A stretch of 42,466 nucleotides of DNA, from positions 1 through 42,466 of the forward strand of contig CAYICB010000007.1 of the NCBI GenBank assembly GCA_964361825.1, in the 5' to 3' direction. Position 1 is the stretch's first letter; the number at the start of each line of letters is the position of its first letter. The notes beneath the pieces were generated by a model that was not told the origin of the DNA, did not search any database, and saw only the letters and a list, made by a program, of their open reading frames with translations. Made by a program: the position numbers and the translations under genes. Source of the stretch: an uncultured Candidatus Saccharibacteria bacterium (lineage in GTDB: Bacteria > Patescibacteriota > Minisyncoccia > Phycocordibacterales > JACOZG01). Shown piece by piece: positions 17,721-17,912 of this stretch.

Positions 17721-17912
17721 TCCTTAAAGGTTCCTAGGCCCCCATCTGCGATGGGGGTTTTATGGTGTTTTGGCTGGGTTTTACCCCAACTCGCCCTGAT
17801 TGTTAACCCGCAGGTATCAGGGCTATCTCTCGATGTTTCCACCGAGAGCCAGGCTGTGGCTACAGCCTCTAGTCAGTTGATTCTTCTCTATTTTGAACTC
17901 AAGGTGCTTCCA
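17721..17912 (-). ncRNA. Putative tracrRNA-like structured RNA
   Basis: Five hairpins including CUCUCGGUG-GAAA-CAUCGAGAG; anti-repeat segments 17721-17738 and 17764-17774; lies directly downstream of a TTGACA-17-TAGATT promoter. Confidence 0.72.

Follow-up and report, generated by a model that had tools for sequence, protein, structure and literature searches.

A candidate tracrRNA-type scaffold RNA upstream of the CRISPR array of an unnamed type V-like system in a Candidatus Saccharibacteria genome

The stretch of DNA analysed here, hereafter the window, is the whole 42,466-bp contig CAYICB010000007.1 of an uncultured Candidatus Saccharibacteria bacterium, whose 0.70-Mb genome is assembled in 18 contigs and scored 100% complete. 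The minus strand between positions 17912 and 17721 appears to encode the scaffold RNA, of the trans-activating CRISPR RNA (tracrRNA) type, of a rare and unnamed type V-like CRISPR system, with the protein encoded at 14644-16365 as its effector. We put the probability of this reading at about two in three. The RNA is probably a type V tracrRNA, most like that of type V-K, in an uncharacterised system without a transposon link. A sequence-only reading had proposed a tracrRNA-like RNA here, upstream of the array and on the same strand. The proposal is supported by a neighbouring protein with a Cas12 fold, a promoter, a homologous RNA in a related locus (L024), and equivalent RNAs in five other systems. 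The elements of the RNA and its array are the following.

17919-17947, minus strand: sigma-70-like promoter of the RNA-array unit; two hexamers, 17-nt spacer, 10 of 12 consensus matches
17721-17912, minus strand: tracrRNA-like structured RNA; 5' end placed from the promoter, functional 3' end placed at the end of anti-repeat 2
17851-17868, minus strand: hairpin H1, in the minimum-energy fold; retained in L024, where one pair differs on both sides
17827-17848, minus strand: hairpin H2, 9 bp with a four-base loop, in the minimum-energy fold; L024 counterpart identified by eye
17793-17823, minus strand: hairpin H3, with an inner 3-bp stem, in the minimum-energy fold
17773-17790, minus strand: hairpin H4, in the minimum-energy fold; four pairs changed on both sides relative to L024
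17764-17774, minus strand: anti-repeat 1 (AR1), predicted to cofold with repeat positions 29-34 and 36-38
17739-17757, minus strand: hairpin H5, 8 bp, between AR1 and AR2; third arm of the predicted junction
17721-17738, minus strand: anti-repeat 2 (AR2), predicted to cofold with repeat positions 9-18, 21-23 and 25-28
17616-17720, minus strand: leader from the RNA to the first repeat, 105 nt, with a block conserved in L024
17248-17615, minus strand: CRISPR array of five identical 38-nt repeats and five spacers, with a sixth repeat that keeps only its first 23 nt
17204-17222, minus strand: intrinsic terminator 3' of the array, a 7-bp stem then a T run, right after the truncated last repeat

The promoter (17947-17919) stops 7 nt short of the proposed 5' end of the RNA. 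Three promoter-like sites were observed in the scanned region, as against 0.7 expected from shuffled sequences. In a terminator scan, the minus strand showed no terminator-like site from the RNA to the array, as had been claimed, and one after the array, at 17222-17204, where the truncated sixth repeat marks the low-coordinate end. Promoter, structured RNA, 105-nt leader, array, and terminator form one predicted transcription unit, a layout that, judged from sequence, fits the earlier idea of a single precursor transcript (one promoter, no internal terminator, and a terminator after the array). The sequence of the RNA region (17651-18500) is identical in the sequencing runs that cover it. Across the whole window there were no Rfam matches at the gathering score; a microRNA model over the repeats (E up to 1; 29 bits against a cut-off of 100) was rejected as chance.

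All five hairpins and both anti-repeats described in the sequence-only reading are present on the minus strand at the positions listed. The minus strand of 17912-17721 folds at -82.3 kcal/mol (RNAfold, z -4.85, none of 200 shuffles as good); the plus strand of the same stretch folds at -74.5 kcal/mol, which 3 of 200 shuffles equal (z -2.57). Cofolding with the repeat also prefers the minus strand (-107.5 vs -92.1 kcal/mol). In the minus-strand cofold, AR1 and AR2 cover repeat positions 9-38 contiguously and antiparallel around an intact H5, which is the bipartite arrangement originally described. The RNA pairs with 26 of the 38 repeat bases in two blocks around H5, the paired AR1 bases being 17769-17764 and 17774-17772, and the cofold gains -22.0 kcal/mol over the separate folds of RNA and repeat.

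The closest relative in which the RNA is captured is L024, a locus with a frameshifted effector gene and an array reduced to one remnant repeat. Its RNA is homologous to that of the window (nhmmer, E 3e-9; single-sequence covariance model, E 0.00094). In an RNAalifold comparison of the two, 8 of 32 predicted pairs are kept through changes on both sides, located in H1, H4, and H5, with three such pairs in H5. A ten-base stretch of the H3 loop is identical (alignment columns 144-153), as is a leader block of 12 columns (301-312), and a 27-nt segment of L024 faces the remnant repeat when the two are compared by eye. Among nine loci the covariance model found L024 only, besides weaker matches in L022 at 10132-10320.

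More distant relatives were sought through the effector, P0001, in 1,203 sampled genomes (401 each from the same order, phylum, and class). The family occurs at full or near-full length in six of these. Matches were found in 5 of 401 genomes in the order sample (including the window's own), 5 of 401 in the phylum sample, and 3 of 401 in the class sample, where the two besides the window's own genome are weak and partial. Two metagenome contigs and one genome contig, the latter lacking an array, were added as further loci. Arrays occur in seven family systems, and the upstream flank is present for six, the window among them. The array repeat of L023 is very like that of the window, and the contig of this locus ends short of the expected RNA. 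The five other systems with a flank are organised as follows.

L014: two arrays flanking the effector gene, each with a near-identical structured RNA of ~150 nt before it and a terminator after it
L015: three promoter-RNA-array-terminator cassettes
L021: two cassettes, one of which has just one spacer
G780: at least three cassettes, spread over three contigs (L038 and L039 among the loci); RNA z -3.21
L022: one cassette, with the array oriented by its terminator

Promoters analogous to that of the window precede the RNAs in L014, L015, and L021. The repeats of these five systems differ from the window's repeat, and in each of them short segments, identified by eye, lie on both sides of the RNA's last hairpin and are complementary to adjacent parts of the system's own repeat. 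The anti-repeat segments thus appear to change along with the repeat across six systems. Paralogous cassettes are nearly identical through the RNA, and this identity breaks down just 3' of the second anti-repeat, which suggests a functional 3' boundary at that point. The orientation of RNA to array is constant across systems, whereas orientation relative to the effector gene varies. The L022 array is assigned to the plus strand because of its terminator and truncated terminal repeat.

Further features of these cassettes were noted. A U- and G-rich run lies right 3' of AR2 in the window (17711-17720) and, as read by eye, likewise in L021, L022, and L038; it might mark the 3' terminus of the scaffold RNA or a site at which it is processed. 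An anti-repeat candidate in L022 (7700-7759) was rejected, as it is unstructured (z +1.5) and inside a glycosyltransferase gene. The arrays of L014 (7312-7651 and 10413-10749) and L015 (7587-7952 and 10430-11419) have strongly divergent repeats, 61-89% identical, in which only the 3' part that faces the anti-repeats is kept. No Cas1 was found in the few flanking open reading frames (ORFs) scanned near these arrays; given this and their divergent repeats, they look like fixed guide sets. In L021, at ~7397-7900 on the plus strand, a scaffold RNA precedes just one repeat and one spacer, with a partial repeat and a terminator after them, which is effectively a one-guide unit.

The array separates the RNA from the genes for the presumed effector and for a Cas1.

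14644-16365, plus strand: P0001, a 573-amino acid Cas12-like protein and presumed effector, with the RuvC-I Asp replaced by His
16418-17191, plus strand: short Cas1, matching PF01867 profile positions 81-253 of 283 and TIGR00287 positions 85-324 of 327

P0001 had no match in Pfam or NCBIfam and no significant match among Protein Data Bank (PDB) sequences, the sole phmmer hit being an unrelated protein (E 0.043). The protein is rare: a word-indexed search returned two proteins including itself, and a full HMMER scan of 1.84 billion representatives returned 45 relatives at E up to 0.001. An AlphaFold model built from 26 family members has a predicted local distance difference test score of 81.6 and a predicted template modelling score of 0.80. 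The top Foldseek matches of this model are all Cas12 or TnpB proteins, with CasX first (E 5.9e-9), then Cas12f, Cas12k, Cas12g, CasPi, and Cas12c. In the VIA ranking ShCas12k comes first (Z 15.6, root-mean-square deviation 3.5, 346 residues aligned), in a tie within 1 Z unit with ISDra2 TnpB (Z 14.9) and AsCas12f (Z 14.5). The modelled fold is Cas12-like and closest to Cas12k. Neither P0001 nor its family profile matched Cas12k chains by sequence, and the profile matched the C-terminal zinc-ribbon region of TnpB and Cas12f weakly (E 0.0033).

In the family alignment, the RuvC-I catalytic column is His in 19 of 26 members and Asp in none; the RuvC-II Glu is kept in 19 of 26. The zinc ribbon is lost in the subclade of P0001, where no Asp was seen at the position aligned to RuvC-III. 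The RuvC catalytic site of the family therefore appears to be inactivated. The window's Cas1, the only one in the genome, lacks roughly the first 80 profile positions, that is, the N-terminal domain; a Cas2 was not found in this genome. In L022, L016, and L017, cas1 genes just as short occur 3' of the effector gene, and L021 and L023 have Cas1 fragments. No transposase or Tn7 gene (tnsB, tnsC, or tniQ) was detected among 20 neighbouring ORFs, and a genome search for TniQ found nothing, though its control was silent too. The scanned neighbours in L014, L015, L021, and L022 are housekeeping genes or Cas1, none of them Tn7-like.

Members of the clade that retains the zinc ribbon have, by eye, a small basic ORF (~85-125 amino acids) directly upstream of the effector gene; by the same reading it has no counterpart in the window. 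Its sites are given below. The L016 contig is labelled as an uncultured gammaproteobacterium, and the family may therefore reach beyond the small-genome lineage of the window.

L014, ~9930-10250: small basic ORF
L015, ~9978-10250: small basic ORF
L016, ~250-560: small basic ORF
L017, ~140-510: small basic ORF
L019, ~1950-2250: small basic ORF

A number of results weigh against a tracrRNA-type scaffold. None of the six runs that contain the locus is an RNA run. Hairpin covariation comes from two-sequence comparisons only, and the RNAs of distant systems are not alignable by sequence, their family likeness being one of layout. In a duplex scan of 7066 contig windows the RNA site scored -34.8 kcal/mol (mean -19.7, sd 5.6), and several unrelated windows outside the array equalled or exceeded this, down to -39.0 kcal/mol. 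We calculate that perfect 10-nt complements to any part of the repeat should turn up ~2 times per 42-kb contig, counting both strands, and ~0.008 times within the 300 nt upstream of the array. The near-palindromic core of the repeat contains the longest helix between RNA and repeat. At the scale of the contig, complementarity by itself does not exceed chance; the RNA stands above chance because of its position, strand-specific structure, promoter, and comparative evidence.

The three-way junction that had been proposed fared unevenly in cofolds of the window, L014, L015, and L021, in which the L014 and L015 repeats were representative composites of divergent copies rather than exact units. It is the minimum-energy cofold in two of these four systems, the window and L015, but not in the other two, where intramolecular folds win: the gain is -0.5 in L014, and -5.1, with different pairing, in L021. 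These energies, the unexceptional complementarity at contig scale, and the by-eye placement of the longest helix in a near-palindromic part of the repeat would all fit the reading that the structured region is instead a cis-acting part of the pre-crRNA leader (a 5' stabiliser, an attenuator, or a platform for the integration machinery) that does not pair with the repeat, its complementarity being a by-product of the core and of chance. The RNA is also contiguous with the leader, with no terminator between. We consider this unlikely, since segments complementary to each system's own repeat flank the last hairpin in six systems with different repeats, conservation among paralogues ends right after the second segment and not at the leader, and the effector is structurally nearest to Cas12k and Cas12f, which use tracrRNAs, and to TnpB, which uses a fused omega RNA.

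The anti-repeat helices of most homologues are short, 3-8 bp and partly identified by eye, and the first anti-repeat segment of L022 has ~3 bp only. Known scoutRNAs have only 3-5 bases complementary to the repeat, and the type V-C and V-D loci that encode them have Cas1 alone, without Cas2. The window RNA could accordingly be a separate small RNA of this kind, paired through few bases, with its long second helix incidental; the paired segments of only 3-8 nt in most homologues and the presence of Cas1 without Cas2 fit such a view. It is nonetheless very unlikely to be right, as it leaves unexplained the 26 of 38 repeat bases paired in the window and the 27-nt segment that faces the remnant repeat in L024, and Cas12k, Cas12f, and TnpB, which top the VIA list, outrank Cas12c by Foldseek E-value.

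The plus strand also has a terminator-like site at 17736-17760, in which an 11-bp stem containing H5 is followed by a T-rich tail. An element on that strand would be the terminator of a transcript that runs from the effector and cas1 genes, both of which are plus-stranded, through the array, and the other hairpins would be incidental. Much poorer folding of the plus strand (z -2.57 vs -4.85), the truncated repeat and clean minus-strand terminator at the cas1 side, and the strong minus-strand promoter at 17947-17919 make this extremely improbable. Moreover, the corresponding hairpin of L014 has, by eye, no T run on the opposite strand, and the RNA-to-array orientation is kept in homologues despite differing orientation of the effector gene. 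A tracrRNA-type scaffold on the minus strand is the reading we prefer.

The array at 17248-17615 is the only one in the 0.70-Mb genome, and four of its five spacers match the organism's own chromosome perfectly.

s1 (leader-adjacent), 17547-17577: own contig 10, 31/31
s2, 17478-17508: own contig 5, 31/31
s3, 17408-17439: own contig 1, 32/32
s4, 17339-17369: own contig 1, two sites, 31/31 each
s4, 17339-17369, third site: own contig 1, 28/31
s5, 17271-17300: no match in own genome

The s4 target is a conserved stretch 72-105 nt past the start codon of three adjacent paralogous genes for secreted proteins, one of which has a VWA domain. The s3 target lies within the coding region of a PKD-domain surface protein. 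Spacer s2 matches an amidase gene at its 3' end, where the site is 63-93 nt upstream of the following ORF, and s1 matches an intergenic stretch between an ABC1-kinase gene and a small zinc-ribbon ORF. At the four target sites that overlap ORFs, spacers s2, s3, and s4 are antisense to those ORFs, which makes RNA targeting also possible. The four self-targets share no flanking motif (protospacer-adjacent motif) on either side, and the promoter-like sites found at them are weak (9/12) and not decisive. No match to the array was found in a phage collection. Contigs from four metagenome runs that match only the spacers were considered as phage protospacers and rejected, because the spacers match the organism's own chromosome, from which these contigs derive. 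An array variant is present in run X1, where a 98-nt contig joins 17369 to 17509 and omits two repeat-spacer units.

Self-matches occur in one relative. The G780 array query (~ten spacers) gave two matches in its own genome, of 35 nt at 100% and 38 nt at 95%, on its large contig 24 at about 123208-123242 and 164269-164306. The queried arrays of G678, G100, and G255 had no matches in their own genomes. Perfect self-matches, carried by a genome that persists from sample to sample, are consistent with an effector that leaves DNA uncut, which accords with the altered RuvC site.

The analysis shows sequence features, predicted folds, a conserved layout, and apparent co-variation of anti-repeats with repeats; transcription, processing, protein binding, and a non-cleaving outcome we infer, as follows. 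The promoter at 17947-17919 would drive one transcript comprising the structured RNA, the 105-nt leader, and the array, ending at the terminator at 17222-17204. Hairpins H1-H4 would form the scaffold that binds the Cas12k-like protein, and AR1 and AR2 would pair with the 3' thirty nucleotides of the repeat around H5, producing a three-way junction in which the repeat's final few bases and the spacer that follows are positioned for loading. The RNA may pair with the first repeat in cis or, once cleavage has taken place, in trans. Host or effector nucleases would trim the precursor to a tracrRNA:crRNA pair. RNase III is encoded in the genome; in our judgement it would act poorly on helices as short as those of most relatives. 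The complex would then bind matching DNA, or possibly RNA, most likely without cutting it, because the RuvC-I Asp is lost and four of five spacers match the organism's own chromosome.

A broader suggestion, possible but on balance doubtful, is that the system is an updatable gene-silencing device, in which a nuclease-dead Cas12k-like protein and a co-transcribed tracr-array RNA, with chromosome-derived spacers taken up by a minimal Cas1, would tune expression by binding self genes or mRNAs rather than destroying invaders. If true, this would be adaptive, heritable self-regulation by CRISPR in a minimal-genome symbiont.

Directly adjoining the promoter of the RNA, on the opposite strand, is a toxin-antitoxin-type pair (17948-18816) of an MNT-like nucleotidyltransferase and a HepT-like ribonuclease, with a divergent promoter-like site beside it at 17941-17969. 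The pair is adjoined by a gene for a VirD4/TraD-like coupling-protein ATPase (533 amino acids, 18816-20417), which is unusual in a 0.7-Mb genome. A family 4 glycosyltransferase follows at 20421-21484, its N- and C-terminal halves on two overlapping ORFs (177 and 180 amino acids), which could be a frameshift or a split gene. The DNA runs that contain the window contig are labelled groundwater metagenome.

Among known systems, Cas12k and Cas12f use tracrRNAs, and TnpB uses a related, fused omega RNA. One account of type V-K (PMC12416283) describes a tracrRNA located upstream of the array in the same direction, two separate anti-repeat segments in it, a pseudonuclease effector, and a restriction to cyanobacteria. 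As in that account, the window RNA is upstream of the array, in the same direction, and has two anti-repeats. The effector is likewise a pseudonuclease of ~600 amino acids, for which Cas12k is the top structural match (Z 15.6), and the 3' ends of the repeats are G-rich in both. There are also differences. P0001 has no sequence-level membership in Cas12k, a scan of 20 neighbouring genes revealed no transposase or Tn7 gene, the system has a short Cas1 and spacers that match host genes, and relatives have several RNA-array cassettes per locus. The genome is a 0.7-Mb one from groundwater, whereas PMC12416283 describes type V-K as confined to cyanobacteria. AR1 is plain single-stranded sequence beside a hairpin, unlike its V-K equivalent, which is described as belonging to a triplex inside a stem-loop.

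The system shares small effectors and long, multi-hairpin scaffold RNAs with Cas12f and TnpB (AsCas12f, Z 14.5; ISDra2 TnpB, Z 14.9), and the P0001 family profile weakly matches their C-terminal zinc-ribbon region. Cas12f and TnpB keep the full catalytic triad and cut DNA. The zinc ribbon is gone from the subclade of the window. TnpB has its guide fused directly to the scaffold; in the system described here the two are separated by a leader and full repeats. An altered or dead RuvC site and a presumed binding-only function are likenesses to Cas12m, Cas12c, inactivated TnpB derivatives, and V-U* candidate subtypes; Cas12m needs no tracrRNA. Unlike a scoutRNA, the window RNA is predicted to pair through 26 bases, some relatives pairing through only 3-8 bases per segment.

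A 2023 survey (PMC10691335) lists 40 candidate type V subtypes, V-U6 to V-U45, of which some have altered catalytic sites, and reports scaffold-plus-guide units that are duplicated in another lineage. In the literature searched, which included passages of PMC13674389 and did not extend to the supplements on V-U6 to V-U45, no description was found of this RNA, the tracr-array cassette, the protein family, or the self-matching spacers, and the searches made returned no characterised member of the P0001 family. Should the RNA prove to be such a scaffold, it would be the missing guide component of a compact (573-amino acid) Cas12k-like family, and the system could be rebuilt and tested directly. 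The dead nuclease site, the Cas1, and the four of five spacers that match the host perfectly suggest that CRISPR is used here to bind and not to cut, in a setting other than the transposons of Cas12k. In the cassette, a mini-array shares its promoter with a scaffold RNA, and this unit recurs around the effector gene; such a layout is intermediate between TnpB, with its fused omega RNA, and classical type V systems, in which tracrRNA and array are separate, and it thus bears on how tracrRNAs arose.

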